From IMG/VR virus record IMGVR_UViG_3300003962_000117: a stretch of 64,000 bases of DNA, one strand, 5' to 3'. The position numbers and the translations under genes were made by a program. The number at the start of each line of letters is the position of its first letter. The stretch's first letter is position 1. The DNA comes from an uncultured virus (IMG/VR IMGVR_UViG_3300003962_000117) (Duplodnaviria > Heunggongvirae > Uroviricota > Caudoviricetes). Positions 25,748 to 63,998 of this stretch are shown one piece after another. The notes below the pieces were generated by a model. That model was given only the letters and a program-made list of their open reading frames with translations. It had not been told where the DNA came from and did not search any database.

Positions 25748-25892
25748 TGCAATACAAAAATCACAAGCCGAAGAAAGAAATAACTTGCGATTGCGGAAGA
25801 AAAACAACTAAGCAGATTAAAGGCAAGTGTCAGCTCTGCTATCAAAAATTGAAAGAGGAAAGAAAGGCGAGCAGACGCCAATACGATTTGAT

Positions 25893-26387
25893 ATGAGAAA
25901 CAATCCGATATACATATTCTTCATAACAGTCAAGTACAGGCTGGTGTCTCTATTTCGAGAAAAGCCGAAAAGTGGCTACTACTTATTCCTCGATGACCAG
26001 CGCATCCCAGACCGAGTTTTTAAATTCACTGGCGAAAATGAATACATTGATTTCAGGTGGACTATCGTTAGAAACTACGGTCAATTTGTTAAGACTATAA
26101 CCAAAAGAGGGCTTCCTCTGCTATGTAGCTTCGACCACGATTTAGGATTAGAGCATACGAAGTATTTTTTCGATAATGGCGGATATGCGAACCCTCCCGA
26201 CCCATTAAAAGCAAATTTCAAAGAGAGGCATGGGTACGATGCGGCTAAATGGATGTCTGACTTCTGTATAGACAACAACTTAAAGCTCCCTGAGTTTAGG
26301 GTTCACTCGAAGAATCCAACCGGAAGAGATAATATACTTTTCTATTTAACCAATCACATAAAACATTTAGAAAACAATAAGACATGA
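25893..26387 (+). CDS. cyclic-phosphate-processing receiver-like domain protein
   Basis: LFLDDQRIP, WTIVRNY, SFDHDLG, GYD, VHSKNP motifs. Confidence 0.7.
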   Translation: MRNNPIYIFFITVKYRLVSLFREKPKSGYYLFLDDQRIPDRVFKFTGENEYIDFRWTIVRNYGQFVKTITKRGLPLLCSFDHDLGLEHTKYFFDNGGYANPPDPLKANFKERHGYDAAKWMSDFCIDNNLKLPEFRVHSKNPTGRDNILFYLTNHIKHLENNKT

Positions 26388-48718: not shown

Positions 48719-48724
48719 CCCTTG

Positions 48725-48795
48725 AGGTCGTAATCTGATTTGAACAGATGTACGCAGTTTTGCAGACTGCTGGATAACCGCTCTCCCATACGACC
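48725..48795 (-). tRNA. tRNA-Cys(GCA)
   Basis: GGTCGTA/TACGACC stem, GCAGT CTGCAAA ACTGC, TTCAAAT T-loop, U73. Confidence 0.9.
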
Positions 48796-48878
48796 AATTA
48801 AACCCTGTCATCGCAATAGTCATCAAACCGAACTCAGTCGCAAGGGTTTTCAGCCCCATATTGCGAGACAAAGTTTTG

Positions 48879-48952
48879 AGCGAAAGACGGGGGTCGAACC
48901 CGCGAACCTCCACATTGGCAACGTGGCGCTCTACCGACTGAGCTACTTTCGC
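48879..48952 (-). tRNA. tRNA-Gly(GCC)
   Basis: GCGAAAG/CTTTCGC, CCACG TTGCCAA TGTGG. Confidence 0.92.
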
Positions 48953-48962
48953 ATGATAATAA

Positions 48963-49679
48963 TTATTCACGTTTATCTCTTTTTATATGCCTGTTTACCA
49001 TAGCGCATAGTGGTCGAAAATTCGTATAATGATTTAATCTTATTAATTCCTCTTTCGTCTTTGCGCTTTTTAATGGAACTATATGGTCTAAATCCCATCC
49101 ATAATTAAATTTTCCGTTATATTTGCCTTTATTTTTCCAAGTCATCCATTTTTCAAACTTGGACTCAATGTGTGTTTTAAATTCCAGAAATGTGCATCCT
49201 AATATGCTTTGAGTTACCTCCTTCTTAATATACCCATTCTTCTTGATAGACTCTCTTATCAATCTGCTAATAGTGCATTGCAGGGAAAACAATGAATTGT
49301 TCGCTCTTTTGTTTCTCATGTACATCCTTTTTCTTTCCCTGAATTTTATTTTATGTTCAACATAGTAGTCGTGAGCATATTGGGATAGGGCTTTCTTGTT
49401 TTTATCTCTATACACCTTAGTTGATGACAGGAAGCATTCTTTGCATACTTTTTTGTGTTTATAAAATTTAGAAATATCCTTAATCTCCAAGCATTTGCTG
49501 CATTTTTTTTGACTTATATTTCTGCCGAATGGAAGTATGATATTATTCTTTTTTGCAAATTTTTTAACTAACTTAAAGTTTCTCCCATAATATTTTAACC
49601 CTAAATTCTCCAATACGCCTCTCATATTTATGGAAGATTTAACTGCATTTGTTAGCTCTGTTTTCGTAATTTTTTTCAT
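48963..49679 (-). CDS. HNH-family endonuclease inside the tRNA array
   Basis: CSKC/CKEC zinc knuckle; ILGCT...MTWKN...WDLDHIVPL...[10 protein letters not shown]. Confidence 0.8.
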
Positions 49680-49880
49680 GGAAATTAGTATAACCCCGAT
49701 TCTGTTTTATTTTGTCATTTATCTAAGCCACAACCCGACTTCATAGGAAAACCGACATCCTCTGTCTGTTTGTGTTGCTACTTCCATAGTGATAGCGAAT
49801 GTTTTTCATTCTTCTATGTTAGGTTTGGTAGTCGGGAGTTTCCTCTGATAATTAACCAGCGACAAACCCTATTACTTCCA
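49677..49880 (-). ncRNA. rnpB: minimal RNase P RNA
   Basis: GAGGAAACTCCCGA pairs with AACAGAATCGGGGTTA (P4 with bulged U); P2 TTTGTC/GACAAA, P3 CTGGT/ATCAG, GGCTTAGATAAATGA, AGTAGCAACACAAA. Confidence 0.85.
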
Positions 49881-49888
49881 CAAATATA
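49881..49888 (-). promoter_or_regulatory. Bacteroidota -7 promoter for rnpB/HNH
   Basis: TATATTTG on - strand immediately 5' of the RNA. Confidence 0.6.
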
Positions 49889-49941
49889 CTATTTTTCAAG
49901 ATTCTGTTTTATAACACGCATATAATATTTCAAAAAACGAG

Positions 49942-50015
49942 AGCGGATGGCGAGGCTCGAACTCGCGACCTGAACATTGGAAGTGTTCCATTCTACCAAA
50001 CTGAACTACATCCGC
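49942..50015 (-). tRNA. tRNA-Gly(TCC)
   Basis: GCGGATG/CATCCGC, GAACA CTTCCAA TGTTC. Confidence 0.92.
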
Positions 50016-50025
50016 ATTTATTTAG

Positions 50026-50097
50026 TACCCCGTAGGGTAATCGAAACCCTATCTTTTGGTTGAAAACCAAACGTGCTGACCTTTACACCAACGGGGC
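50026..50097 (-). tRNA. tRNA-Glu(TTC)
   Basis: GCCCCGT/ACGGGGT, TTTGG TTTTCAA CCAAA. Confidence 0.88.
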
Positions 50098-50146
50098 GTA
50101 GTCTCCTCCGCCTCGTCAGTTTCTTCAACTATGTTAATCACGTTTG

Positions 50147-50275
50147 TCATTTTGCTTCTTGTTTCAAAATTCTCCTTGTTGATTTATTTGCCAGTCGTTT
50201 TCCATCTTTACGCAAGTGCTTGTGCCAGCCTGTTTCGCTTCTTGATTTTCCGCTTACCGGATATTGCTTTTTCAT
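50147..50275 (-). CDS. 42-aa basic peptide
   Basis: MKKQYPVSGKSRSETGWHKHLRKDGKRLANKSTRRILKQEAK*. Confidence 0.55.
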   Translation of the reverse strand: MKKQYPVSGKSRSETGWHKHLRKDGKRLANKSTRRILKQEAK

Positions 50276-50286
50276 TCTATTCTTAT

Positions 50287-50436
50287 TTATGAATCCGGTG
50301 TTTCAAAACAATGTCCGCATTCAGTGCATTTTTTCCCGTATGGATTATCTGGGTCTATATCGAGAGCGTCTGGTGTATGTCCGCAATTAGGACAATCATA
50401 ACCTTGCTCGTCATAATATATAACTCCATTTTTCAT
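50287..50436 (-). CDS. 49-aa zinc-ribbon protein
   Basis: MKNG...CPNCG...CTECG; ATG just 3' of tRNA-Asp. Confidence 0.6.
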   Translation of the reverse strand: MKNGVIYYDEQGYDCPNCGHTPDALDIDPDNPYGKKCTECGHCFETPDS

Positions 50437-50438
50437 TG

Positions 50439-50514
50439 CGGATGTGAAGGGGCTCGAACCCTCGACCTCTCCCGTGACAGGGGAGCACTCTAACCAAAAC
50501 TGAGCTACACATCC
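50439..50514 (-). tRNA. tRNA-Asp(GTC)
   Basis: GGATGTG/CACATCC, CTCCC CTGTCAC GGGAG, G73. Confidence 0.92.
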
Positions 50515-50526
50515 ATATTTTTTTTC

Positions 50527-50603
50527 TGGCTCTCGCGGCAAGACTTGAACTTGCGACCCTCTGATTAACAGTCAGATGCTCTAACCAACTGAGCTACGCG
50601 AGA
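50527..50603 (-). tRNA. tRNA-Asn(GTT)
   Basis: TCTCGCG/CGCGAGA, TCTGA CTGTTAA TCAGA, encoded CCA. Confidence 0.93.
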
Positions 50604-50617
50604 ATTTATATTTCATG

Positions 50618-50691
50618 TACGCAAGGCTGGATTTGAACCAGCGACCCCAACATTATCAGTGTTGTACTCTAACCAACTGAGCTACTCGCGT
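50618..50691 (-). tRNA. tRNA-Ile(GAT)
   Basis: ACGCGAG/CTTGCGT, CAACA CTGATAA TGTTG. Confidence 0.92.
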
Positions 50692-50844
50692 ATAATATGC
50701 TGCCATCGAGACAAACAAGATTTGTTGCAACAAAATCCTGCCTGACATTCTTTATATAGCGGTGGCGGACGCTACTTAATCTCATGCGGTTTGCAACATA
50801 CGATTTGCGCCTACACGATTTCAGTTTCTCAAAGAACAACTTCG

Positions 50845-50946
50845 TAGCGGGTGTGAGAGTCGAACTCACTATCTCTGAGGGTATGAGCCTCGAATGATTC
50901 ATGCAATTCATTTCTGGCATTGCAATCTCCGTTTCACTCCCCCGCA
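50845..50946 (-). tRNA. tRNA-Met(CAT), initiator-like, with enlarged D-loop
   Basis: GAGG CTCATAC CCTC anticodon arm, GTGAG TTCGACT CTCAC T-arm, 1:72 mismatch, 36-nt D-loop. Confidence 0.65.
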
Positions 50947-50962
50947 ATATATTTTTCTTCCG

Positions 50963-51035
50963 TAGCGATAGGCAGACTCGAACTGCCGACCTTGAGTTTA
51001 TGAATCTCACGCTCTACCACCTGAGCTATATCGCT
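50963..51035 (-). tRNA. tRNA-Met(CAT) (elongator Met or Ile2)
   Basis: AGCGATA/TATCGCT, loop TTCATAA. Confidence 0.88.
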
Positions 51036-51047
51036 GTCATTTTTTAG

Positions 51048-51120
51048 AGCCAGTTGAGGGACTCGAACCCCCGACCAACTGATTACAAATCAGCCGTTCT
51101 ACCAACTGAACTAAACTGGC
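51048..51120 (-). tRNA. tRNA-Thr(TGT)
   Basis: GCCAGTT/AACTGGC, GCTGA TTTGTAA TCAGT. Confidence 0.93.
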
Positions 51121-51121
51121 A

Positions 51122-51193
51122 TGGTAGCGATAAGAGGACTTTCACCCCTTGTTAGGCTCGCGAGAACCTAACCCCCGTGATGAGAATATCGCT
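51122..51193 (-). ncRNA. tRNA-like RNA with ACCA end, no anticodon loop
   Basis: AGCGATA/TATCGCT-ACCA, T-like arm AGGGG TGAAAGT CCTCT, 8-bp hairpin with 4-nt loop. Confidence 0.6.
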
Positions 51194-51279
51194 GGACGAA
51201 TCCGTTTTAGCCGTAACCTATTGTACAATTCAGTTACGATTTATCATCTTCATCTTTCTGCATTATGGTTTAGCAGAAG

Positions 51280-51354
51280 TGGCAACAGTTGGACTCGAAC
51301 CAACAACGGGCAGATTTTCAGTCTGCTGCTCTACCAAATTGGAGCTATGTTGCC
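51280..51354 (-). tRNA. tRNA-Phe(GAA)
   Basis: GGCAACA/TGTTGCC, GCAGA CTGAAAA TCTGC. Confidence 0.93.
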
Positions 51355-51446
51355 ATTCAAGCAGGGCGATTCCGATAGAACGGAAAGATTACAGGGCGCT
51401 GATTCTTTTTTTTGCTCTTTCACCCAGACCTGCTTCGTGGAATTGT

Positions 51447-51592
51447 TGGCGCAGGCGGTAGTTTATCCCCGCGTCCTCCTCCTTCTCAGGCAGAGGTGAA
51501 CAACTTTGGTCTTAATGGGTCACGTTAACCCACTCCGATGGATAATGATTCAGCGCTGAATCATCGCTCCCCATTCTGTTCTACTGCACGCA
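51447..51592 (-). ncRNA. unassigned multibranch structured RNA
   Basis: closing stem GCGTGCAGTAG/CTACCGCCTGCGC, three inner hairpins. Confidence 0.45.
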
Positions 51593-51600
51593 TCTTAAAT

Positions 51601-51676
51601 ATCGCTGTCGGGCAGGGCTCGAACCTGCGACCTCCTCCCTCGCGGGAGTGCTCTACCAACTGAGCTACCGACCGAT
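51601..51676 (-). ncRNA. tRNA-like RNA with GCGA tetraloop replacing the anticodon loop
   Basis: canonical D arm TAGCTCAGTTGGTAGAGC and T arm GCAGG TTCGAGC CCTGC; CTCCC GCGA GGGAG. Confidence 0.75.
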
Positions 51677-51773
51677 GTCTCAGGAGACCCGACCAGCAGA
51701 ATTTCGTTTACGAGACGAAACCCCGCAGTTCGTTAGATTGTACCTAATCCCCATCCACACCTTCTTCAATATC

Positions 51774-51878
51774 TTCGGCAAGAGAACTGTTCCGCACCAT
51801 CGTAGTCCCGTTGGAACTGTACGTTGTTACGATGGGTGTCCATCTGGTGTGATACTCCCTTTCAGGAGTCCTGCCGAA
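51774..51878 (-). ncRNA. unassigned structured RNA
   Basis: TTCGGCAG/TTGCCGAA, ACTCCT GAAA GGGAGT, CACCCATCGTA/TACGATGGTG. Confidence 0.5.
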
Positions 51879-51923
51879 TAATTTCCAATAATAATTTTCA
51901 AAGAACATTTACTATCACTATCG

Positions 51924-51996
51924 CGCAAGTGACAGGGCTCGAACCTATGGCCTACGGTTTTGGAGACCGTTGCTCTACCAACTGAGCTACACTTGC
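51924..51996 (-). tRNA. tRNA-Trp(CCA)
   Basis: GCAAGTG/CACTTGC, ACGGT CTCCAAA ACCGT, G73. Confidence 0.93.
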
Positions 51997-52409: not shown

Positions 52410-53364
52410 ATGGCAAAGAAAGCAATCAAACAAATCTGCTCCCTCTACGACTTACTAAAGAAATTTCCCACTGAAAAGGACTGCATCGAATACTTCGAGC
52501 AAATAATCTGGCAGGGGAAACCAATATCTCCATTCGATGAGACCTCGAAGGTCTATAAATGCTCTGGCAACAAATATAAATGCAAAAAGACTGGAAAATA
52601 CTTCAACATTAAGAACGGAACTATTTTCGAGAACAGCAACATTAAACTACAAAAGTGGCTTATGGCTATTTACCTGATGACTTCACACAAGAAAGGTATC
52701 AGTTCTATCCAGCTATCGAAAGACATAGGCGTTACTCAAAAGAGCGCATGGTTTATACTCCACAGACTTCGTTATGCAATGGCTCACAGAGACTTTAAGA
52801 AGCCACTGGGGAACACCGTTGAGTGCGATGAGGCATATATCGGTGGAAAGGAAAAGAACAAGCACGCAAGCAAGAAAAGAGGTCAAGGACAGGGTTCATT
52901 GGACAGAGAGGCATTGGATAAGGCAACCGTATTCGGAGCAGTTGAGCGGGGGTGGAAAGGTTGTAGTGGAGAAAATAGCCAATGCTAACAAGGAAAATAT
53001 AGAGCCGATTATATTCAAGAACGTAAAAGAAGGTTCAAGAATATTTACTGACGAATGGTATGGCTATCATGCGCTCGGAAAAACTTACGAGCATAAATCA
53101 ATTAAGCATAATGTAAAGCAGTATGTAGATGGTGAAGTCCATACGAATACCATCGAAAATTTCTGAGCGTGTTTAAAGCGCGGGCTATACGGCATATACC
53201 ATAAGACCGACAAAGCACATCTACAATGGTATCTGGATGAGTTCGCCTTTCGATATAATACCAGAGATATGGCGGAACTTCCAAGATGCGAAATGTTTTT
53301 AGAGAGAACTCAAGGAAGATTGAAATACGCAGATTTAATAAAATCCAATTCTAAGAAAAAATAA
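52410..53364 (+). pseudogene. IS1595 (ISXO2-like) DDE transposase, frameshift plus in-frame TGA
   Basis: KKGISS.QL, VECDEAYIGG, TDEW..Y, HTNTIENF*, YLDEF.FRYN; extra G at 52948-52952, TGA at 53164. Confidence 0.85.
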
Positions 53365-54062: not shown

Positions 54063-54572
54063 TTATTGAGTGTAACTTATAATCGGTCTTGCTCCGAGCA
54101 TATACTTTGTTTCTCCGGATGGAAAACTCTGACTTCCGTGCTCAAGACTGATGTCAAATAAAATCCCGCGACCCATCTTATTTTCGACTGGAGTTATGTT
54201 TTCTCCGTCATAGAAATTTGTTCCGCCACCTCTGGATAAGTCGTTGAGATAGAAGGCCAGCTTAAAAAATACTCCGGCATCAGCTCTATCCTTATGCTTT
54301 CCAAGTGGAGAATAGGCTCTGGTCATGGTCATGTCGCTTCCGATGCCCATAATCCTGAATGATTTATTCCGGAGCTCGTCTCGAAATGTCATTGCGGAAA
54401 TTTTATCACGGATGAATCCCCATAATTGGTTGCTCAGTAGCGGCATTGTGATTATTACCTGATGCTCGCCAACGGAATCAATTTCCTTTCTTAGATATTC
54501 GCATTGCTCTGGAGTGAGAATATTTCCCATCAAATAGATGCTTGTTCCAAAGCATTTTTTAACCCCCGACAT
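54063..54572 (-). CDS. 2OG-Fe(II) oxygenase (prolyl-hydroxylase-like)
   Basis: KHKD...FYLND...GGGTNF...G.GILFD...EHG...KY. Confidence 0.75.
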   Translation of the reverse strand: MSGVKKCFGTSIYLMGNILTPEQCEYLRKEIDSVGEHQVIITMPLLSNQLWGFIRDKISAMTFRDELRNKSFRIMGIGSDMTMTRAYSPLGKHKDRADAGVFFKLAFYLNDLSRGGGTNFYDGENITPVENKMGRGILFDISLEHGSQSFPSGETKYMLGARPIISYTQ

Positions 54573-54575
54573 TGT

Positions 54576-54992
54576 TTACTGTTTTAAATAAAACTCCAAC
54601 TCTTTATGAATAATGCTGCTTACGTTTTTCTTCCAAGATTCATCATTTACTCTTATAGAATTTCTTATATCCGTAGCGCTAATCATTGACACGGAGCCAT
54701 CAACCTTTATTTCATCTATCGAATATCCAACATTTCTTCCATATTTTATAGAGCAAATATTCGGAACGATAATTACTTCAACCAATTCATTGCCAGCATA
54801 TATCATCTCCCACAGCCTCTTAACTATGTCCGCCTTGAGGGGATTTTGCTCTGATGGCTCCATATTCCTTATTGCTATGCAAATCCTTTTTCCTGCATTT
54901 ATTGATTCATTAAAAATAGTCATGTGTCCGATATGGGGAGGTTGAAATCTCCCAACATACAAAACACACTCCCTGTAATCATTACTTTCCAT
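54576..54992 (-). CDS. HxGH nucleotidyltransferase (cytidylyltransferase-like)
   Basis: GRFQPPHIGH...YGRNVGY...ISATDIR. Confidence 0.85.
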   Translation of the reverse strand: MESNDYRECVLYVGRFQPPHIGHMTIFNESINAGKRICIAIRNMEPSEQNPLKADIVKRLWEMIYAGNELVEVIIVPNICSIKYGRNVGYSIDEIKVDGSVSMISATDIRNSIRVNDESWKKNVSSIIHKELEFYLKQ

Positions 54993-55003
54993 GCTTTGAT
55001 TTA

Positions 55004-55996
55004 TTATTTAAGCGACTTAATTACTTCTACTACTCGGCCAGACGCCATTCCGTCCCCATAGGGACAAAAATGCTTACTCGGAATATAATTTCTTACCACT
55101 TTATCAAATATCTCAGGAAGCTCATCTGGTTCCGCGCATAAAAATGAATGAATACCGAGAACTTCTGGTCGCTCGGTACAATCGCGACATACGATAGCTT
55201 TCTTATTAAAAAAGGCTGCCTCCTCCTGCAATCCGCCACTATCGGTAATCAAGAACTTACACTCGGAGACCGCTTTTATCATCTGGTCGTATGGCATTGG
55301 ATTTAATACACGCATATAACTAAGCAACTTTGCGTGCTTGACTACATTTGGATTTGGATGAATCGGGATAGTAAAAATCAAATCGGAATTATGCTGGGCT
55401 AATAAATTTATTACTCTGAACCATTCGTGCATATTTTCATGATTCTCTCTACGGTGCATTGTCACCATAACAACATCATTATATGACGGGGAGATGCCTC
55501 TCAAATTATCAAGTCCGGTATTTCCGGTCACTACAACCGATTTCCCAAATCCTTCCCTGTATAAATTTGAGGCATTTTCTGGAGTGGGGCATAAATGAAG
55601 GTCAGATAAAGTGTCAATTAAACGCCTATTCATCTCTTCCGGATATGGATTCTTTTGATAAGTCCTGAGCCCAGCCTCAAGATGAATGACTTTTATCTTT
55701 CGGTGAAATGCAGCAAGAGCTACTCCGAGAGCGCTTGAAGTATCTCCTTGAACAATTACATGAGTAGCCCCGTGAAATATCCAATCGTCATTCATGCAGG
55801 ATGATACAATGGCGTCCAGTCTGTTCTTGGCCGACTTTTCAATACTTATGCGCTTATGAAATTCACCTTCGGCAATATCCTCCTGCTGGCCAGTAAATAA
55901 AACCTCATGCTTAATTCCAGATTTTTCGAGCTCAGAAATTAATGGCTTAATTTTTATATACTCAGGTCTTGTTCCGTATGCAATCAGTAAACTCAT
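55004..55996 (-). CDS. wecB: UDP-N-acetylglucosamine 2-epimerase (non-hydrolysing)
   Basis: GTRPEYIK, VQGDT, HLEAGLR, PEEMNR, HRREN, TDSGGLQEEA, TERPE, YGDG. Confidence 0.95.
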   Translation of the reverse strand: MSLLIAYGTRPEYIKIKPLISELEKSGIKHEVLFTGQQEDIAEGEFHKRISIEKSAKNRLDAIVSSCMNDDWIFHGATHVIVQGDTSSALGVALAAFHRKIKVIHLEAGLRTYQKNPYPEEMNRRLIDTLSDLHLCPTPENASNLYREGFGKSVVVTGNTGLDNLRGISPSYNDVVMVTMHRRENHENMHEWFRVINLLAQHNSDLIFTIPIHPNPNVVKHAKLLSYMRVLNPMPYDQMIKAVSECKFLITDSGGLQEEAAFFNKKAIVCRDCTERPEVLGIHSFLCAEPDELPEIFDKVVRNYIPSKHFCPYGDGMASGRVVEVIKSLK

Positions 55997-56019
55997 TTTA
56001 AAGATATTTTTTATAGTTG

Positions 56020-57147
56020 TTATTCGCTCAAAAACAACATCCTGTCAGTTGTTGCATTTACAATATGAATGAAATTATTAAGAGTCTTTTGCTCGACAAC
56101 TTTAAATCCATTTCCAATCATTTCATCAATCATGTCGAGAACCCAATCCATTTGATATATCGGATTGTCTTTTTCATAATTTATAACAAAAACCCAATCA
56201 TCGAACCCCGTTTTAAAATCAGCATGAAGAACATCGTGCTTCTGGGGATGCTCGAATACAATCTTGCATTTCTTTTTCCTAAATTCTGATAACGGAATTA
56301 TTCCCCTAAATATCCCCCAAGCATTTATTCTATCGCTAAACACTCCATGATGAAAACAATAGCTAAATGGGAGTCTATCAATCTCAAACGGAAATGGATA
56401 ATAGGTGTTTTGTGGATACTTGTCTAATGACAAATCCTGCTTAATCTCAGCTCCGTGCCGAGCCCAAGTTTCGCCCCTGTGAATAAAGCATTTCTCTAAC
56501 GATGGCCTAATATTTGAATAATAGCAATCAAAATAATCAACCTCGTCTGGGTCGAGCAGGCTTTCTATCCGTCCGGATTTATACCATTTTTTATAATCTT
56601 TATATCTGCGCAATTCGATAACATCCGCAATCAAGAATGGATGATTGTATTCTTTTGGCCTAAGATGGCTATATACTTGCGGAAGAAGAGAAGGGAAGTA
56701 GGATTCGAGGTCACTATCATGATTTTTTATTTTATGACCCTTAGTTCTGAGAAAATCATGGAGGAGGCATGATGCGTGAAGCAAGTCAATGGATATTTTG
56801 GAATTGCATTTATCTGAAAAATACTTCGGATTATTAACATCGCTGAGGCTTTTATTTAAAAGCCCAAACTCGCCCCTCATTAAGATTCCGGCTACTATAC
56901 TTGTTGACATTCCGTGCATCAAGCCATGCTTCAAGTCGGATGTCCACCCATTAATATCCCTGTATTTAACTCCGGCAAGTAAGTCGTTTATGCTTCCGCG
57001 ATGATGGACGTTCCATAACAGGTTGCTTACCGAGACCGGAGTGTTGTTGTTTTTTGCGCACCTGCTACAAAGCGAATAAATAAGCAGCTCCAGATAATCG
57101 TTGATTACCTTTGATGTCTTTTGAAAAGATTCAAAATTACTTCTCAT
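56020..57147 (-). CDS. HD-domain-like protein
   Basis: HG..H ... LLHDF ... H ... IAD spacing. Confidence 0.5.
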   Translation of the reverse strand: MRSNFESFQKTSKVINDYLELLIYSLCSRCAKNNNTPVSVSNLLWNVHHRGSINDLLAGVKYRDINGWTSDLKHGLMHGMSTSIVAGILMRGEFGLLNKSLSDVNNPKYFSDKCNSKISIDLLHASCLLHDFLRTKGHKIKNHDSDLESYFPSLLPQVYSHLRPKEYNHPFLIADVIELRRYKDYKKWYKSGRIESLLDPDEVDYFDCYYSNIRPSLEKCFIHRGETWARHGAEIKQDLSLDKYPQNTYYPFPFEIDRLPFSYCFHHGVFSDRINAWGIFRGIIPLSEFRKKKCKIVFEHPQKHDVLHADFKTGFDDWVFVINYEKDNPIYQMDWVLDMIDEMIGNGFKVVEQKTLNNFIHIVNATTDRMLFLSE

Positions 57148-57655
57148 AATCCGATAATATCACCCTGTATTCGTTATCTCTATCGCAATCGTCCATAGCC
57201 CAGTATTTAAAATCACAAGACGGATACTTGTCTGGCAGATTCATATTTTCATACTTATCCCAAACATGAAATCGTATTTTCATCTTAGTGTTAGCAGTGT
57301 TTTTTATCACACGTTCTATAATGTTTACAAAAGAGGAAGGATTATGCAGGCCAATATTGATGGCATTTACGCCCATAAGCTCTAATTGATGCGCCTTTTC
57401 TATGTCAAGATAAATTCCATTTGTATAGAGTATAATAAACTTATCCTTTGATAGCTCGCAAACCTGCCTAATCCTATCCATAAACATAAGGGGCTCTCCT
57501 CCTGAAATGCAAACATTACTGTATTTTTTAAAATCAATTTCTTCGAGAAAAGAACCATAAATGTCTTTCCTAAACCTATGATTCTCGTTGCAGCAGTAGG
57601 AGCACGATAGATTGCATTCCCACGCCACTAATATTCGTATAGTATCCACTTTCAT
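57137..57655 (-). CDS. radical SAM protein
   Basis: CNLSCSYC, ISGGEP, YTNG. Confidence 0.9.
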   Translation of the reverse strand: MKVDTIRILVAWECNLSCSYCCNENHRFRKDIYGSFLEEIDFKKYSNVCISGGEPLMFMDRIRQVCELSKDKFIILYTNGIYLDIEKAHQLELMGVNAINIGLHNPSSFVNIIERVIKNTANTKMKIRFHVWDKYENMNLPDKYPSCDFKYWAMDDCDRDNEYRVILSDYEK

Positions 57656-58338
57656 ATTTTGTGCAGTATTTTTTTAACACATTCTCCAATCGGACGTGCC
57701 GTATCAATAATAAGCTCTGGGCGCTCAGGCTTTTCATAGGGGCTATCAATTCCGGTAAACTCTTTTATCTCACCCCTCCTTGCCTTTACATACAATCCCT
57801 TTACATCCCTGCTCTCGCAAACCGATAAAGGCGTACTTATGTAGGTCTCGATAAATCTCGCACACATCTTCCTGCACGAATCTCTGGCCTCTGCAAATGG
57901 AGAAATCATGCTGACAATCACAATATACCCCTGCTTCTCAAAAATAGAGGCCATATAACCCACACTAACATTGTGCTTAATTCTCTCTTCTATACTAAAT
58001 CCGACTGGCGGTGGGACGATTTTTCTTATCTCATCTCCGTCAAGCAATATGCACTTTGCGCCTACTCCTGTCAATTTTTTAAATAACAACTTAGCTATCG
58101 TTGTCTTGCCAGCTCCCGACAATCCGGTCATCCATATAACACATGGCTTGTAGTTAAAGATGGTTTTATGCCAGAATAAATCAAAGGCAGAGTATGAAAA
58201 TATTTTAACAAAAACATCAATTCCTCCTAATGATAATGACAGTTTAAAATCTCCAGTAATTATAAAAGCCAGCACAGCAGTTATTATCGAGGAATAAATT
58301 CTGTATATGGTAGATTTTATTATGAGAATGTATTTCAT
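57652..58338 (-). CDS. cysC: adenylyl-sulfate (APS) kinase with N-terminal DUF2061-like membrane domain
   Basis: WMTGLSGAGKTT, LDGD, RDVKGLY, FTGIDSPYE. Confidence 0.93.
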   Translation of the reverse strand: MKYILIIKSTIYRIYSSIITAVLAFIITGDFKLSLSLGGIDVFVKIFSYSAFDLFWHKTIFNYKPCVIWMTGLSGAGKTTIAKLLFKKLTGVGAKCILLDGDEIRKIVPPPVGFSIEERIKHNVSVGYMASIFEKQGYIVIVSMISPFAEARDSCRKMCARFIETYISTPLSVCESRDVKGLYVKARRGEIKEFTGIDSPYEKPERPELIIDTARPIGECVKKILHKI

Positions 58339-58964
58339 GCCGCCTCCCTTATAAGTTTAAACCACGTTTGATGGCCATTGACGTGAACGTATTCCAGCCT
58401 CTCATAAATAAAACCAAAGGTCTTGGCTGCATCAATAATAAATCCCTCTGTATATGTTACGCATTCCGGATACTCCCATTCACTCCCAGAGTAGTCACTT
58501 TTCCCCTCCATAAATGTTCCAAAAAATAACGAATCTCCGCGCATGACCTCGCCTAAGCTCATAAGGCATTTCTCAATTTGGCGTTTCGAGCAATGCGTAA
58601 ATATTGAATGGGCTAAGACAAAATCAAAATCGCACCCAAACTCACCTAACTCGAAATTACTATCGTGCGAAAAATGTGGCTTCTTTATTCTAACCAAATC
58701 CCATCCAATCTCCTTTTCAATCCCAGTATTCAGCACGGATTCATTTGGCTCAATTCCATAGTAATTGCCCTCCATTAAATACGGTATCAATAATTTTCCA
58801 GCCCTCAAAGAACCGCATCCTATATCAAGAACTCTATGATACTCTCTGAGGCCAAGCTGAAAAAGTAGAATGAATTGATGGGCAGAAAAAAGGTCGTACT
58901 TGCGCCTGTGGCCTTTTCCGACATACTCCCTGTAATCAAAGTCTTTAGAATCTACGTCTATCAT
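58335..58964 (-). CDS. class I SAM methyltransferase
   Basis: VLDIGCGSLRAG, FD..LAHSIFTH. Confidence 0.9.
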   Translation of the reverse strand: MIDVDSKDFDYREYVGKGHRRKYDLFSAHQFILLFQLGLREYHRVLDIGCGSLRAGKLLIPYLMEGNYYGIEPNESVLNTGIEKEIGWDLVRIKKPHFSHDSNFELGEFGCDFDFVLAHSIFTHCSKRQIEKCLMSLGEVMRGDSLFFGTFMEGKSDYSGSEWEYPECVTYTEGFIIDAAKTFGFIYERLEYVHVNGHQTWFKLIREAA

Positions 58965-58966
58965 TT

Positions 58967-59641
58967 TTAATGATGCTTTAATGACTTGTCCAAAAATTCA
59001 TTCACCTTAATCAAATTATCCTCGCTATAATTTAAAAATGGAAGCTCGTGCTGCAATTTAGAAATGACGCTCTGCGTATTGTTGATGAGATGGTCGAACT
59101 TGACAACAACCCTACTCTCTTTAATCATGGCGCTTTCTAAATGATATAAATATTTTCTTATCAATGCCCTGCACACATCTTCCTCAAACCCATTTCTGGC
59201 AATCAAAGATTTCACTATTTTATATTCATCTCTAACGGATTGAACATACTTGACATCATATCCGAGCTTAATCAAAGCACTCTTATACAAAGGCAGTAGC
59301 AAACAAATTCTTGGGTCTTTAATTGCAATGAGAGGATGCCCGCCAAATACAGATTCGAGTACATACTCAATCAATGGCTTTAATTCACTTATGAGAGATT
59401 CGTGATTTACTAATACTCTCAGAACTGCATCGTGCGGGTCATCCCAAGAACTATTTAGCTTCTTGCTGAGAATGTACTCATTCAGGTTGAATATGCTTTT
59501 GTTTTCAAAAAAGCCCTTCGGGTTATCCTCTGCTGGAGGGGATATATCCTCGCCCAAATATGCACCTAAAATATTAATAACCCCAGTAAGCGCACTTGTC
59601 CCGCTCCGGTGCATACCAACTATTAAAATTGCGACCTTCAT
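58967..59641 (-). CDS. sulfotransferase-family protein
   Basis: GMHRSGTS, NPKGFFE, KDPR. Confidence 0.85.
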   Translation of the reverse strand: MKVAILIVGMHRSGTSALTGVINILGAYLGEDISPPAEDNPKGFFENKSIFNLNEYILSKKLNSSWDDPHDAVLRVLVNHESLISELKPLIEYVLESVFGGHPLIAIKDPRICLLLPLYKSALIKLGYDVKYVQSVRDEYKIVKSLIARNGFEEDVCRALIRKYLYHLESAMIKESRVVVKFDHLINNTQSVISKLQHELPFLNYSEDNLIKVNEFLDKSLKHH

Positions 59642-59688
59642 ATATCTGCTTTCAAAAAAATGCGTCTCGAAATATTATTTTAAAAAGG

Positions 59689-60219
59689 CTATATCTTCTC
59701 GATAAAATAACTCGACCAGTCATCGGTTGAGATGAACATCTTAAATCCGTTGTTCAAGCAAAATTCATCAACGGCTTTTTTAACCTCGTGATATGGATAG
59801 TCGTGACCGCACAAATATCCACCCTTTTTAACTTTATGCCACCACATACCCAAGTCCTTTGTAACCGCATCATAGCTATGGTTGGCGTCAATATAAACAA
59901 AGTCAAGGCTGTTATCATCAAACATACTGACAGCCCTGTGCCCAGTAGCCCTTATCATGGTCGCTCTCTCTCCGAAAGAGTATATCCTATCAAATGCGCT
60001 TGACAGGTTTTCCCTCTGAGCGTCTGCGCCCACATTAGCTACATCATTATAAGATTCTCTTGGCAGCTCCCTCCAAATATCAATCAGGACTAACTCTCTT
60101 CCATTCCAATTTTTCAGTATGTGCTCAGAATACTTCGCCTTCTGAACTCCGAGCTCAACCCCGATTCCTACCAGACCTTTTTCATTAAGAAATGCTGGAA
60201 AATCTTCCCTTGTTTTCAT
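59689..60219 (-). CDS. Methyltransf_24-type SAM methyltransferase
   Basis: GVELGV, LDFVYIDANHSY, KKGG...GHDY. Confidence 0.9.
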   Translation of the reverse strand: MKTREDFPAFLNEKGLVGIGVELGVQKAKYSEHILKNWNGRELVLIDIWRELPRESYNDVANVGADAQRENLSSAFDRIYSFGERATMIRATGHRAVSMFDDNSLDFVYIDANHSYDAVTKDLGMWWHKVKKGGYLCGHDYPYHEVKKAVDEFCLNNGFKMFISTDDWSSYFIEKI

Positions 60220-60226
60220 TTTTGTT

Positions 60227-61078
60227 TTATTTAGTTGGTTTATAATTTATTGCTTGTTCTGCTATTTTCAGATACCTGTGAATCATTAAATGATTGTTCA
60301 TTATCCAATTTTGATTATCCTTTATCATCGCCTCATAACCCGCCTTTGGTATAGACAATATTTTTTCTATCTGCGAGAATATATCTTCATAGTTGTGATA
60401 AAAATACGCCCTGTCAGCGAGTGAAGGTATCTTTGCGCACTCCTCGTTATAATCAGTAAGCAGCATTCCGCCAAATCCTATATTCTCAAAGACTCTATAA
60501 TTGCATTCGTTGGTACTGGACTTGTTAAACGCCACATAGGAGTCCTGAACTACATTAGCATACTCTCTCCATGAAGCGGTTTTTATTGTATAAGATATTT
60601 TTCTCGCATCTAAATCAGACTTGAATTTATCAAAAAACAATTTCCTATTGACATATTCATCAATATGGCCGACAAACGAAAGCTGCTTCCCCCTGCCCTC
60701 TTTTATTCTTCTCATCAAATCTAATGTAAAAAAGAATCCGAGAGGAAGATGGGTTGACGGCCTATTCAGTTTCCTCCTCATTCCATCAACAGACATAAAA
60801 ATATAATCATACGAGTTTGCATAATTCGGATAGGCGCTAAAAATTCCGCCATTATCTATGAACCACATTGCTTTAGGCACTTTTACGCTGGCCATGAGAT
60901 GCGAATAGATGGACTTACCTTCATTAAATTCCTGCTCTATAATTAAATCTGCATTTTTTGCTCGCTCGTAAAAAACCTCTTTAGGCATTTTATAATTATA
61001 AAAACTCGCATCAAAATATTCACCGAGCCCCATAAAATCCGAGTCCCATAGCGTGAGAAATAATACCTTTGGCTTCAT
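60227..61078 (-). CDS. CgeB-like glycosyltransferase
   Basis: SFVG, FN......NYRVFE..G.G.MLLTD. Confidence 0.75.
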   Translation of the reverse strand: MKPKVLFLTLWDSDFMGLGEYFDASFYNYKMPKEVFYERAKNADLIIEQEFNEGKSIYSHLMASVKVPKAMWFIDNGGIFSAYPNYANSYDYIFMSVDGMRRKLNRPSTHLPLGFFFTLDLMRRIKEGRGKQLSFVGHIDEYVNRKLFFDKFKSDLDARKISYTIKTASWREYANVVQDSYVAFNKSSTNECNYRVFENIGFGGMLLTDYNEECAKIPSLADRAYFYHNYEDIFSQIEKILSIPKAGYEAMIKDNQNWIMNNHLMIHRYLKIAEQAINYKPTK

Positions 61079-61728
61079 ATTGAATACCCTAATTGCTTTT
61101 CCTGATTTATATCAAGGCGCTTTCTTATCGCAGACATATATCGAGATGGGATTTTGTATTTCGGCTTACGAATATATGTTCCGCCATACGTCTCGTCACT
61201 ACTCGTTATAATTATGTTGCTGCTTTTCCTTTTAATGGAAAAATTCTTTCCAATATCTACAATGATTTCCCTTCCGTTTCTTTTTATATCCTCGTACCTT
61301 ATCAGCACATAATTACTTACCATCTCAGGCATCCTGTCGAGCAAGTATTCATTTTTCAACTTCCTTAACTCAAAAATATCCTTATACTTTTTTTTATCTT
61401 TCCAATTCCTATCCTCTATAATTTCATTTCCAGTCGCCTCATCAATAGAAACCCATTCGTCAAGTAAAAATGAACCCCATCTCTTATTTCGACCAATAGG
61501 AAGATGATGAGGGTGTTTTTTTAAAGAAGCCATCCATTGAACAGGGTTCCTGACAATTCCTATAAATAAAACATCATCAGTTCCAGATAGGTCGCTGTGT
61601 CCAAAAAAATGCTTCCATCCCCATAACTGCAAATGCTCTATGTCAAAATTATCTAACATAATCTTTTGAATAAAGTTAGTGCCGGAACAACGCTCTCCGT
61701 ATATGGTAAAGATTTTTATATCGCCCAT
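61075..61728 (-). CDS. sulfotransferase-like protein
   Basis: GERCSGTNF, GWKH, RNP..W..S, IRYED. Confidence 0.75.
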   Translation of the reverse strand: MGDIKIFTIYGERCSGTNFIQKIMLDNFDIEHLQLWGWKHFFGHSDLSGTDDVLFIGIVRNPVQWMASLKKHPHHLPIGRNKRWGSFLLDEWVSIDEATGNEIIEDRNWKDKKKYKDIFELRKLKNEYLLDRMPEMVSNYVLIRYEDIKRNGREIIVDIGKNFSIKRKSSNIIITSSDETYGGTYIRKPKYKIPSRYMSAIRKRLDINQEKQLGYSI

Positions 61729-61746
61729 TACTATTAAATTCTCAAA

Positions 61747-62490
61747 CTACAAGTTCATTTTTTTCACTCCTAAAAAAAGACCTCTGTATTTATTATATTC
61801 AAATGGCTTGCCTTCGCTAAATACGGTCTGCTGATACACGATGTCAAACCCTACCTCTTTGATTGCCTGAATTAGTTGCGTTTTTTTGAGCCAAAAAGAT
61901 TTGCTATTACTGTACGAAGCCCATTTATTCATCTCGACTTTATCGCGAGTGGTATTGGAGTCGTATTCAAAAAACCACCTACCCAACTTCCCTTCATTCT
62001 CGCATATTGGAGATAAGCTAAACTGGCAATCGCGCATATCATCCTCTGCATAATGAGTGTCTATGATTATAGTGTCGGTTATAGCTCCCATCTGCTTTAA
62101 AAATGAAACCGGATTGTCCAGATGGTACAAAATCCCGCAACAAAGAATCGCACCATACTTTTTTGACGAGCCGATATTTTTTACATCATCTTTCACAAAG
62201 ATGAGATTTGATAGTTGTTTAAACTTGCTTTTTACAAATAGGCATTTCTGATAATTGGACTCGCGAGCCTCTACCCCAATTACGTCATATCCCATCTGCG
62301 CAAGCGCCACCGAATATCCGCCCTCAAGACATCCTAAATCCAAAATAGACGACTTAGCTCTAACGAATCTGCCTATACTGTCATAAACGGCTCGACTAAG
62401 AACGGAGTCTTTGTGCTCCTCTTTGCCAGCATCCATCGTAAATGTTCCGTCTGGAAATTTTATATTATGGGCTGTAAATTGCTCTGTCAT
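61747..62490 (-). CDS. class I SAM methyltransferase
   Basis: ILDLGCLEGGYS, GVEAR, CCGILYHLDNP. Confidence 0.9.
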   Translation of the reverse strand: MTEQFTAHNIKFPDGTFTMDAGKEEHKDSVLSRAVYDSIGRFVRAKSSILDLGCLEGGYSVALAQMGYDVIGVEARESNYQKCLFVKSKFKQLSNLIFVKDDVKNIGSSKKYGAILCCGILYHLDNPVSFLKQMGAITDTIIIDTHYAEDDMRDCQFSLSPICENEGKLGRWFFEYDSNTTRDKVEMNKWASYSNSKSFWLKKTQLIQAIKEVGFDIVYQQTVFSEGKPFEYNKYRGLFLGVKKMNL

Positions 62491-63998
62491 TATAGATTTA
62501 TGTTGATATATTTTTTCTCAATCCATCCAACAGTCACTTCATAATTTTCAACCGACAATCCCCATCTTTCACAAAATGCCTTACGCCTCTCTTTGTACAT
62601 ATCGCTCAATCCGCGCTTTTTAAGCTCCCTTCGTCCAAAATTTTTATCGTGATAATAATTGGGCGCATTTACCGAATATGACTTCCAGCCCTTAGCTCTC
62701 ATTGCGTAGAAAAAATAATCATCTTCATATCCCCATCCAAAGCTATTAAAGGGTGGGTGCGATGGGAATCTTACCTCCCTAAGCACATCTGTTCTAAATA
62801 ATCCATACTGCGTCCAAGCCATTGGATACCAGCAGTTGATTTTCGTAATGACTCCCATTTTTTCATCCGCATCGCTCCGGCTTAATGTGCCGCTCCAGTG
62901 TCCATTATTTTTTTGACTCCTTTCATAATCGTAATACCCAATGATTGCTGCGTCCGGAAACATATCCATTACCAGAGAATACTTTCTGATAGTGTCTGGC
63001 ACATAAAGAATATCTCCATCAATCAAGAATGTTCGCTCGTGCGAAGCCAAGCATACGCCAAGATTTCGAGCAATAGACGAGCCGTAATTGTCGTTAAGTC
63101 GAACGTATTTTATCTGAGAACCAAACTCCTTAAATAGCTTGCCCGAATTATCATCGGAGCCATTATCCACCACTATGACCTCTATGCCTTCGGCCAGCAA
63201 CCTTCGGGCTGACTCTACGGATACATGACTCTCGTTCCAGTTAGTAATAATGGCGCTGGCCTTAACATCTTGATATTTTTTGTCATACACTTTTTTCATT
63301 CCGTTCTTAAATTCAAATTGCTTTTCTTCATCAAGAAATTTATGACTCACTCCGCCAAGATGATTAACGATTGAGTCTTTTACAAGTGCGTGCCTGAATC
63401 CGTGATTTTGTAATTGTTTTGCGTAATCATTATCCTGAAACCAGAACTTAAACTTCTCATCGAACTCTCCTATCTTTTTCAAAACCTCTTTCTTCATTAC
63501 AACGCAGTACCCGAATACCTGCTCGCCAACATTATAGCCGAGCCATACCGGAGACGGGACGGATATTTCGGGTCTCGCCTCGAACCACTCTTTCCAGAAA
63601 GGACAAGCCGAATCGAGATTGTGCTCGCCCATTGCATTTACCATTTCAGATAACCACCCTCCTTCAAAAATCACATCGTTGTTTGTAGCGACAATGTACT
63701 TGCTTTTGCATTTTGAAAATCCTATGTTCAAAAACTTGTTGAAATTAAATTCCTGCTTCGGAATAATCACATTAGCGTCATATCCTTTTGGGAAATCCTT
63801 GTCGAATTTTTTATTGGTTTCTATCAAATACACATTGAACTTGACTTCTTTTTGAGAGCCTCTCAGAGATGAAATTGCGTTCTTGGTCATTTCGTATATC
63901 TGCTTATCCTTCGTATAGGACAGCATTACCACATCAACCTCAATGCCTATTGGGTGCTGCTTTACGAGCTTAATGGAATATAGCTTCCACCCTTCGCA
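62490..63998 (-). CDS. tandem GT2 glycosyltransferase, 5' end outside window
   Basis: two GT-A domains (NNDV...FDEKF.FWFQDND; VVDNGSDD...RNLG...IDGD...WGYEDD); frame open to edge. Confidence 0.9.
   Translation of the reverse strand, partial: CEGWKLYSIKLVKQHPIGIEVDVVMLSYTKDKQIYEMTKNAISSLRGSQKEVKFNVYLIETNKKFDKDFPKGYDANVIIPKQEFNFNKFLNIGFSKCKSKYIVATNNDVIFEGGWLSEMVNAMGEHNLDSACPFWKEWFEARPEISVPSPVWLGYNVGEQVFGYCVVMKKEVLKKIGEFDEKFKFWFQDNDYAKQLQNHGFRHALVKDSIVNHLGGVSHKFLDEEKQFEFKNGMKKVYDKKYQDVKASAIITNWNESHVSVESARRLLAEGIEVIVVDNGSDDNSGKLFKEFGSQIKYVRLNDNYGSSIARNLGVCLASHERTFLIDGDILYVPDTIRKYSLVMDMFPDAAIIGYYDYERSQKNNGHWSGTLSRSDADEKMGVITKINCWYPMAWTQYGLFRTDVLREVRFPSHPPFNSFGWGYEDDYFFYAMRAKGWKSYSVNAPNYYHDKNFGRRELKKRGLSDMYKERRKAFCERWGLSVENYEVTVGWIEKKYININL

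Follow-up and report, generated by a model that had tools for sequence, protein, structure and literature searches.

A 64,000-nt stretch of DNA from an uncultured virus of the Caudoviricetes (IMG/VR record IMGVR_UViG_3300003962_000117), referred to here as the window, carries a 200-nt gene with the homology and fold of an RNase P RNA at positions 49680-49879 of its minus strand. The gene lies inside the interval 49677-49888, for which an original prediction made from the letters alone had proposed a strongly minimised RNase P RNA within a tRNA array. That proposal is borne out by a full-length match to the Rfam model RF00373, covariation of the P4 and P6 pseudoknots among relatives and 12 surrounding tRNA genes on the same strand. 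We consider it likely that the window carries a genuine miniature RNase P RNA gene of bacterial type, kept by selection in the tRNA array of a large phage-like genome, and that its product, together with the protein RnpA, would trim phage tRNA precursors (pre-tRNAs). To our knowledge RNase P, a universal and essential ribozyme, has so far been treated as cellular and organellar.

Full-length Rfam match of a 200-nt RNA

The covariance-model check suggested with the original prediction was run. Infernal cmscan with E-value thresholds aligned the RNA end to end with RF00373 (RNaseP_arch, model positions 1-288 of 288) at 47.2 bits, with E-values of 1.9e-11 in a 3.6-kb search and 1.7e-12 in a 321-nt search. 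Under Rfam gathering thresholds only the 12 tRNAs were reported and the RNase P RNA was not, so that routine annotation misses this gene owing to its sub-gathering score. The alignment agrees with the upper-case consensus at GAGGAAA-UCC, AGCAA, GCUUAG..AAUG, ACAGAA and UUA, and 89 model positions are deleted, in the specificity domain. The pair beside the bulged U of P4 is C-G in the window RNA, whereas it is G-C in the Rfam consensus. As predicted, the RNA is about half the length of bacterial P RNAs, given as 340-420 nt in PMC4919922.

Architecture of the window RNA

The RNA retains P1-P7, P15-P17 and all motifs of the catalytic core (Table 1; RNA position p equals 49880 minus the window coordinate). 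The motifs named in the original prediction were all located, namely AAC(U)CCCGA and UCGGGGUU, which form P4, together with GGCUUAGAUAAAUGA, ACAGAA and AGUAGCAAC; P2 and P3 are likewise present, with compensatory pairs in both. The core strands GAGGAAA (CR-I), UAGAU.AAUGA (CR-IV) and ACAGAA...UUA (CR-V) align to the upper-case consensus of RF00373 and are kept by 18-20 of 20 family members. L15 is a GGGUU internal loop. In bacterial RNase P RNA, J5/15 contacts the cleavage site, the GGU of L15 pairs with the 3' CCA of the tRNA and P4 binds catalytic metal ions (E. coli numbering). The specificity domain, of about 150 nt, reads the tRNA elbow (P8-P12 with CR-II/CR-III, contacting the T-loop and D-loop).

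Two features had been read differently in the original prediction. P15-P18 had been judged apparently absent, which holds for P18, and for P13/P14 as well: after the 3' strand of P15 come GCUUAGAUAAAUGA directly, the 3' strand of P2, AAAACAGAA and the 3' strand of P4, and P7 leaves no room for P13/P14 in the window RNA. P15, P16 and P17 are present and covary, and the P6 pseudoknot is present too. The claim of a shrunken specificity domain is correct for the stub enclosed by P7, which holds 24 nt as one hairpin (GAAUG-AAAAA-CAUUC) and corresponds to an insert of 19-102 nt across the family. The string that had been named for it, AGUAGCAACACAAA, belongs instead to the catalytic domain, where it comprises the 3' strand of P5, J5/15 (AGUAGCAAC) and the 5' strand of P15.

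Table 1. Features of the miniature RNase P RNA and its surroundings in the window. Pair and conservation counts refer to 20 sequences unless stated.
Feature	Position	Strand	Remarks
P1 5' strand GGAAGU, AA bulge, UAG	49869-49879	minus	pairs with 49680-49688; by-column pairs in the 7-sequence alignment A3
P1 3' strand CUA, AUUUCC	49680-49688	minus	adjoins ATG of the next open reading frame at 49679
P2 5' strand UUUGUC	49861-49866	minus	pairs with GACAAA 49711-49716; 5/7 pairs changed on both sides
P3 hairpin CUGGU/AUCAG	49845-49859	minus	98.8% of cells paired; 4/5 pairs compensatory
CR-I GAGGAAA and P4 5' strand AAC(U)CCCGA	49832-49845	minus	AAC(U)CCCGA at 49832-49840; bulged U at 49837
P5 5' strand CUAC	49828-49831	minus	pairs with GUAG 49778-49781; 100% paired, 3/4 pairs compensatory
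P6 pseudoknot 5' strand AAACC, in J5/7	49822-49826	minus	pairs with GGUUU 49749-49753 in the P17 loop
P7 CAUAG/CUAUG and enclosed specificity-domain remnant	49785-49818	minus	5/5 P7 pairs compensatory
J5/15 AGCAA	49775-49779	minus	G, C, A, A kept in 20, 17, 20, 20 of 20
P15 CAC/GUG, L15, P16 GAC/GUC, P17 AGGA/UCCU	49729-49774	minus	GGU at 49733-49735; no P18 after
J15/2 (CR-IV) GCUUAGAUAAAU	49717-49728	minus	UAGAU.AAUGA kept in 19-20/20
CR-V: J2/4 AAAACAGAA, P4 3' strand UCGGGGUU (49692-49699) and A	49691-49710	minus	ACAGAA 19-20/20, terminal UA 20/20
12 tRNA genes in an array that surrounds the RNA	48724-51996	minus, all	ARAGORN and Rfam
Endonuclease VII-like / homing-endonuclease-like open reading frame, 238 aa	48963-49679	minus	phrog_1035, E 1.3e-14; begins at the base after the RNA 3' end
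TATATTTG motif	49881-49888	minus	promoter of the original prediction

Covariation supports the fold

Helices were placed by hand on a seven-sequence MAFFT alignment (A3), in which by-column counts back P1 (outer and inner parts), P2, P3, P5, P7, P15, P16, P17 and the pseudoknots P4 and P6. A covariance model, R1, was built from four seed sequences including the window, trimmed from P2 through P4 (alignment A4), with P4 and P6 omitted deliberately. Because the pairs of P4 and P6 are absent from the model, their covariation is an independent test. Across 20 sequences, pairing holds in 95.7% of the 230 P4 and P6 cells, against 69.4% in shuffles (none of 500 reached the observed value) and 23-45% with slid partners, and both sides have changed in 12 of the 13 pairs. 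Taken singly, P4 (AAC(U)CCCGA with UCGGGGUU) has 97.5% of its cells paired and 7 of 8 pairs compensatory, and P6 has 91.4% paired and 5 of 5 compensatory. Compensatory change in P4 with the bulged U kept, as the original prediction had described, is therefore found among the homologues. All eight helices together pair in 94.4% of 751 cells, against 31-43% in slid controls, and compensatory changes are seen in 36 of 42 pairs; here the six helices other than the pseudoknots are biased in favour of the model to which they had been fitted. Compensatory pairs number 3 of 3 in P15 and 4 of 5 in P17; P16 was checked on seven sequences only.

The catalytic core is under purifying selection. GAGGAA is kept in 18-20 of the 20 sequences, the bulged U in all 20 and the three bases of the L15 GGU in 17, 15 and 16, beside the counts for GCAA, UAGAU.AAUGA and ACAGAA given in Table 1.

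A family of viral relatives

Relatives were found in phage genomes and in viral metagenomes. A blastn search of 50,697 phage records gave partial matches in the uncultured huge-phage genomes LR745206.1 (634,780 bp) and LR756500.1 (462,018 bp), and a relative used as query added LR756502.1 (642,428 bp). With L039 and L030 as queries, blastn found no further phage homologue, and the sole match of L046 was the annotated RNase P RNA of a Salmonella contig. In IMG/VR an exact 15-mer occurs at 30 loci, and at 6 the context is RNase-P-like; the 15-mer was rejected as a family marker, its occurrences being mostly chance (24 of 30 viral loci unrelated). A gapped motif recovered at least 114 stretches in IMG/VR, from which 80 loci were taken for analysis; R1 matched 16 of these at 37-192 bits and the other 64 had no R1 match. 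Over 88 sources, R1 gave 24 matches representing 20 distinct phage or viral-contig sequences. All four R1 seeds match R1 by construction, among them the window, with a core match at 49691-49868. Locus L006 stayed outside the R1 search, its 130-nt flank being identical to that of L002.

The relatives resemble the window RNA in their Rfam scores and in their surroundings. Full-length, sub-threshold RNase P matches were obtained in 5 of the first 7 loci and 11 of 13 later ones; the 17 tested members with an Rfam match score 25-63 bits against gathering scores of 84-100, and none reaches its threshold. The best-scoring model is bact_a, bact_b or arch, several members doing best on RF00010. Estimated total lengths run from about 199 to 310 nt, and terminal P1 helices occur in the flanks of nearly all members (the terminal-helix row of L151 was scored on the opposite strand, which does not affect the existence of the helix). 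In 10 of the 20 relatives the short locus includes tRNA genes, always on the same strand as the RNA. A fragment from the 3' end of a tmRNA gene was also observed about 160 nt upstream of the miniature RNA of locus L036 (L036:1-50).

One member is available in culture. Stenotrophomonas phage vB_SmaS-DLP_6 (KU682439.2, 168,489 bp) carries an unannotated copy of 249 nt at about 105774-106022 (L153:660-908), 3 nt upstream of tRNA-Arg, which scores 65.3 bits with R1 (E 4e-16) and 54.7 bits with RF00010, whose gathering score is 100. The closest relatives of the window RNA are G010, with 74% core identity, and LR745206 and G008, with 68% each.

Cellular RNase P RNAs served as controls. The 3' motif was rejected as phage-specific: it also occurs in bacterial genomes, in ordinary rnpB genes among the matches listed, and is an ordinary feature of AT-rich rnpB. 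RF00010 matches 12 of 20 bacterial loci with this motif at 126-287 bits over 241-371 nt, far above its gathering score, and across 80 such loci the R1 score is at most 53 bits. On these comparisons the phage RNAs are a separate group, much shorter and more diverged than cellular P RNAs. Among the cellular loci, those of marine Flavobacteriaceae and Bacteroidetes have P RNAs of 291-297 nt. A 50-kb contig of an 'uncultured bacterium' metagenome-assembled genome (CAYZAK010000010.1; L171:259-499) holds a 241-nt RNase P RNA with 126 bits on RF00010, which passes gathering, and 53 bits on R1; this is a cellular P RNA of very small size, unless the contig is that of a phage and was binned into the genome.

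RnpA in the closest relatives

Two of the 11 RNA-bearing phage records also encode RnpA above the Pfam PF00825 cut-off. These are LR745206.1 (49 bits; 76444-76752, L147:1465-1812, a 115-aa frame with the motif KRAVDRNRIKRLMRE) and LR756502.1 (52 bits; 525189-525473, L152:1435-1803). Both proteins are short and of bacterial type with an intact RNR motif, and their genes lie far from those of the miniature P RNAs (502 kb and 614 kb). The phage RnpA has 294 metagenome homologues at E ≤ 1e-3; the 120 listed measure 86-145 aa, most about 100, and some of the contigs reach 481 kb. R1 finds the RNA in four of nine viral contigs that encode such an RnpA, including both of those at least 90% complete (483 and 476 kb).

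The window RNA is closest to the RNAs of RnpA-bearing phages (476-642 kb), and for this reason the genome of the window may encode RnpA outside the 64 kb. The original suggestion that host RnpA is used needs amending accordingly, in that the genomes of the closest relatives encode their own. In the largest phages (476-642 kb) we lean slightly towards a complete viral RNase P holoenzyme, in which the miniature RNA and the phage RnpA of about 100 aa would process the phage's own polycistronic tRNAs independently of the host enzyme. Genomes above 634 kb belong to the Mahaphage clade, with Bacteroidetes as predicted hosts, according to the main text of PMC7162821. That main text contains no mention of RNase P, ribonuclease P or rnpA; its supplements may list rnpA annotations.

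Genomic setting

The nearest upstream tRNA gene is tRNA-Gly(UCC) at 49941-50015, with the RNA beginning 61 nt downstream of it. Spacers of 9-13 nt separate tRNAs at four places in the array. The array also has gaps of 158-340 nt (including 50098-50437), with a small Cys-rich open reading frame (ORF; CPNC...CTEC) within 50287-50541 on the minus strand, and the tRNA-Leu at 51604-51674 scores only 39 bits. The 238-aa ORF that follows the RNA matched no Pfam family at E 0.001. A possible 11-bp extension of P1 spans 49674-49885; it could pair across the AUG of this ORF, and the fold might then occlude the start codon. Alternatively, the endonuclease may have homed beside a conserved RNA gene.

The promoter once assigned to the RNA did not hold up. 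Its motif, TATATTTG, is present, but the class to which it belongs occurs at chance level: TAnnTTTG was observed 65 times in the window against 59.1 expected, and 23 of 100 shuffles reach 65. The motif was not seen upstream of the two relatives with aligned flanks, and it may lie partly within an extended P1. Scans for sigma-70 promoters and terminators were at background and gave no minus-strand site on either side of the RNA.

The window is well supported, though not proven, as a piece of a phage. No Pfam family was assigned to 42 of the 67 ORFs of at least 120 aa; those with assignments include DnaB, RecT, SSB, an RNase T-like exonuclease, GIY-YIG and HNH endonucleases and a sugar-modification cluster. 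PHROG families were matched by 11 of 20 window ORFs; one of the 11, at 18530-19780, is related to proteins of 244 phage records. The window also encodes three endonucleases of the homing type. DnaB and the phrog_1362 protein match other phages at 31-51% identity, with no LR record among the matches listed. A tie to Mahaphage-type phages is thus suggested by the RNA and one tRNA only. Recoding of TAG as Q was rejected, as there was no general lengthening of ORFs.

Several further genes were observed. An IS1595-family transposase lies in two overlapping frames (192 and 130 aa) at 52410-53166 on the plus strand, just upstream of the tRNA array, and is probably frameshifted or decayed. On the minus strand, 54063-63998 holds glycosyltransferase, methyltransferase, APS kinase, UDP-GlcNAc 2-epimerase, radical SAM and cytidylyltransferase-like genes, which resemble a cluster for modifying sugars or the cell surface and are unusual beside phage replication genes. 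The plus strand encodes a TPR-SpoIIE (PP2C phosphatase) protein at 555-2639 and a cREC_REC (cyclic-phosphate processing receiver) domain protein at 25827-26384.

Comparison with known RNase P RNAs

The window RNA shares most with bacterial type A RNase P RNA (E. coli M1 RNA/rnpB, RF00010): P1-P5, the bulged U of P4, P6, P15-P17 with the GGU loop, AGCAA, the J18/2-like UAGAUAAAUGA and ACAGAA, and related phages encode a bacterial-type RnpA (PF00825) with the RNR motif. It differs in lacking P18 and P13/P14 and almost all of P8-P12, in its phage-like carrier and in its 200 nt against the 340-420 nt noted above from PMC4919922. It likewise differs from the cellular P RNAs that share its 3' motif, scoring 47 bits where they reach 126-287 bits on RF00010. 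The archaeal type A model (RF00373) scores best on the window RNA, and the archaeal type, as described in PMC4919922, also lacks P13/P14 and P18; unlike that type, the window RNA has no specificity domain and scores below the gathering value. The archaeal best match most likely reflects shared losses and not descent, since the best matches of the relatives spread over bact_a, bact_b and arch.

Loss of the specificity domain has a cellular parallel. The minimal RNase P RNA of Pyrobaculum (type T/P; Lai et al. 2010, as described in PMC4919922) has also kept its catalytic domain and nearly lost its specificity domain, a likeness that concerns this loss only and is taken from the published description. 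Unlike the Pyrobaculum RNA, which is archaeal, cellular and served by archaeal proteins, the window RNA is of bacterial type (P6, P15-P17, L15 GGU), has a viral carrier and is accompanied by bacterial RnpA in relatives. Among viruses, an RNA of camelpox and other orthopoxviruses is also virus-encoded and has some RNase P-like secondary structure, according to PMC3001073. Its likeness is partial and it is reported there to lack pre-tRNA processing activity, whereas in the phage RNA the conserved core is complete and covaries. The camelpox RNA was the only viral case found in our literature searches, in which neither an RNase P RNA nor an RnpA encoded by a phage was found described; most subscription-journal papers lay outside these searches, so that a prior report is possible.

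Small bacterial P RNAs of other kinds are familiar. The P RNA of Mycoplasma fermentans has 276 nt, 'mini/micro P' deletion RNAs have been made, and the catalytic domain of B. subtilis P RNA is active with its protein. A bacterial catalytic domain with little specificity domain can still cleave pre-tRNA, especially with RnpA. Unlike these RNAs, which are laboratory constructs or cellular and of at least 270 nt, the family of the window RNA is natural, about 200 nt long and found in phages.

Proposed function and alternatives

In the reading we prefer, the RNA would fold into a complete catalytic domain made up of P1-P5, the P4 and P6 pseudoknots, P15-P17 with the L15 GGU, J5/15, J15/2 and J2/4, with the 24-nt hairpin stub in P7 standing in for the specificity domain of about 150 nt. 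Together with RnpA, encoded in another part of the phage genome, as it is in the closest relatives, or else supplied by the host, it would cut 5' leaders and the 9-13-nt spacers from polycistronic phage pre-tRNAs. The outcome would be a phage-owned capacity for tRNA 5' maturation during infection.

Several observations weigh against this reading. The RF00373 score of 47.2 bits falls short of the gathering score of 84, and among the relatives L001, L002 and L006 have no Rfam RNase P match at E ≤ 1 and L109 and L098 none at E ≤ 0.01; L001 and L002 are nonetheless placed in the family by R1 and covariation. Folded as a single sequence, the RNA has a minimum free energy of -41.9 kcal/mol with z = -1.18 relative to shuffles, and the predicted fold is not that of RNase P; folding of this kind is uninformative for a pseudoknotted, AT-rich RNA. 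No RNA run occurs among the listed sequencing runs that contain the window sequence, which are DNA runs with small shares only. The specificity domain has lost its elements for binding the tRNA T-loop, and pre-tRNAs may for that reason not be recognised efficiently. CCA is encoded by only 1 of the 12 tRNA genes (tRNA-Asn), and the kept GGU loop may for that reason not act on primary transcripts. The original prediction was right that the window contains no rnpA: Pfam found none among its 67 ORFs, the best tblastn match of the phage RnpA had an E-value of 1.4, and an RnpA profile from 120 homologues, run over 739 window frames, reached 0.59 at best against 1e-46 for the positive control. RnpA is also missing from 9 of the 11 RNA-bearing records, DLP_6 among them, so that a partner for the window RNA is putative. 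No capsid, tail or terminase gene was found among the scanned ORFs of the 64 kb, and the phage nature of the window is drawn from PHROG matches, homing endonucleases, ORFs without a family and the relatives.

Some of these observations could be accommodated by a non-catalytic mimic or decoy, which would bind RnpA or pre-tRNAs and divert or throttle the host enzyme, or regulate the phage tRNA supply, without cutting. The near loss of the specificity domain would fit such a role, as would the viral RNase P-like RNA of camelpox, reported inactive in pre-tRNA processing (PMC3001073), and in the 9 records without their own RnpA it is the host protein that the RNA would encounter. For a decoy, surfaces that bind protein or tRNA would be enough, yet the whole catalytic core is nearly invariant, including the bulged U of P4 in 20 of 20 sequences, ACAGAA and GCAA; in addition, some phages carry both the RNA and RnpA, which fits the building of an enzyme and not titration. 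We regard a decoy as improbable. An active ribozyme with shifted substrates, acting mainly on other phage RNAs (tRNA-like or hairpin substrates or operon mRNAs) or on tight tRNA junctions only, and not as a general RNase P, would likewise be in keeping with the lost specificity domain and with the mixture of four 9-13-nt spacers and gaps of 158-340 nt in the array, and bacterial RNase P does cut several non-tRNA RNAs, including phage-induced regulatory RNAs, according to PMC4919922. The consistent neighbours of the family are nevertheless ordinary tRNA genes, and no alternative substrate was identified in this analysis. L15 GGU and J5/15, which contact the tRNA 3' end and the cleavage site, are kept. 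A shift of substrates seems quite improbable to us.

It is very improbable that the gene does not belong to a phage at all, being instead a piece of a small-genome bacterium or of another mobile element, or a decaying copy of a captured host rnpB. The lack of a virion gene among the scanned ORFs, the IS1595-type transposase and sugar-modification cluster, and the 241-nt RNase P RNA on the 'uncultured bacterium' contig would be explained in this way, as would the IMG/VR provirus label on the RnpA-bearing G010 and on two contigs that share one RNA sequence (G001/L043 and G004/L039). Against it stand the relatives in the curated huge-phage genomes LR745206.1, LR756500.1 and LR756502.1 and in the cultured phage KU682439.2, the matches of window proteins to phage-only PHROG families and the three homing-type endonucleases. 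A decaying copy is ruled out by the compensatory changes across 20 sequences.

Implications

Herein, a miniature RNase P RNA in phage-like genomes, linked to tRNA genes and accompanied by rnpA in some relatives, would add tRNA 5' maturation to the translation functions that large phages bring with them (tRNAs, tmRNA and synthetases). Why a phage would need such an enzyme may lie in host shut-off, in a burst of phage tRNA synthesis or in escape from defence systems that target tRNA processing. All tested family members score below the Rfam gathering thresholds, which points to an annotation blind spot. The proposal is directly testable: the cultured phage DLP_6 carries a copy of the RNA, and the giant phages supply a matched RnpA. 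The family offers dozens of natural minimal P RNAs, in which covariation defines what the catalytic core needs, and it bears on RNA-world arguments and on ribozyme engineering. If the holoenzyme reading is true, it would be the first catalytic RNase P of any virus, as far as our literature searches show, as well as the smallest natural RNase P of bacterial type, and the specificity domain would be dispensable in nature.

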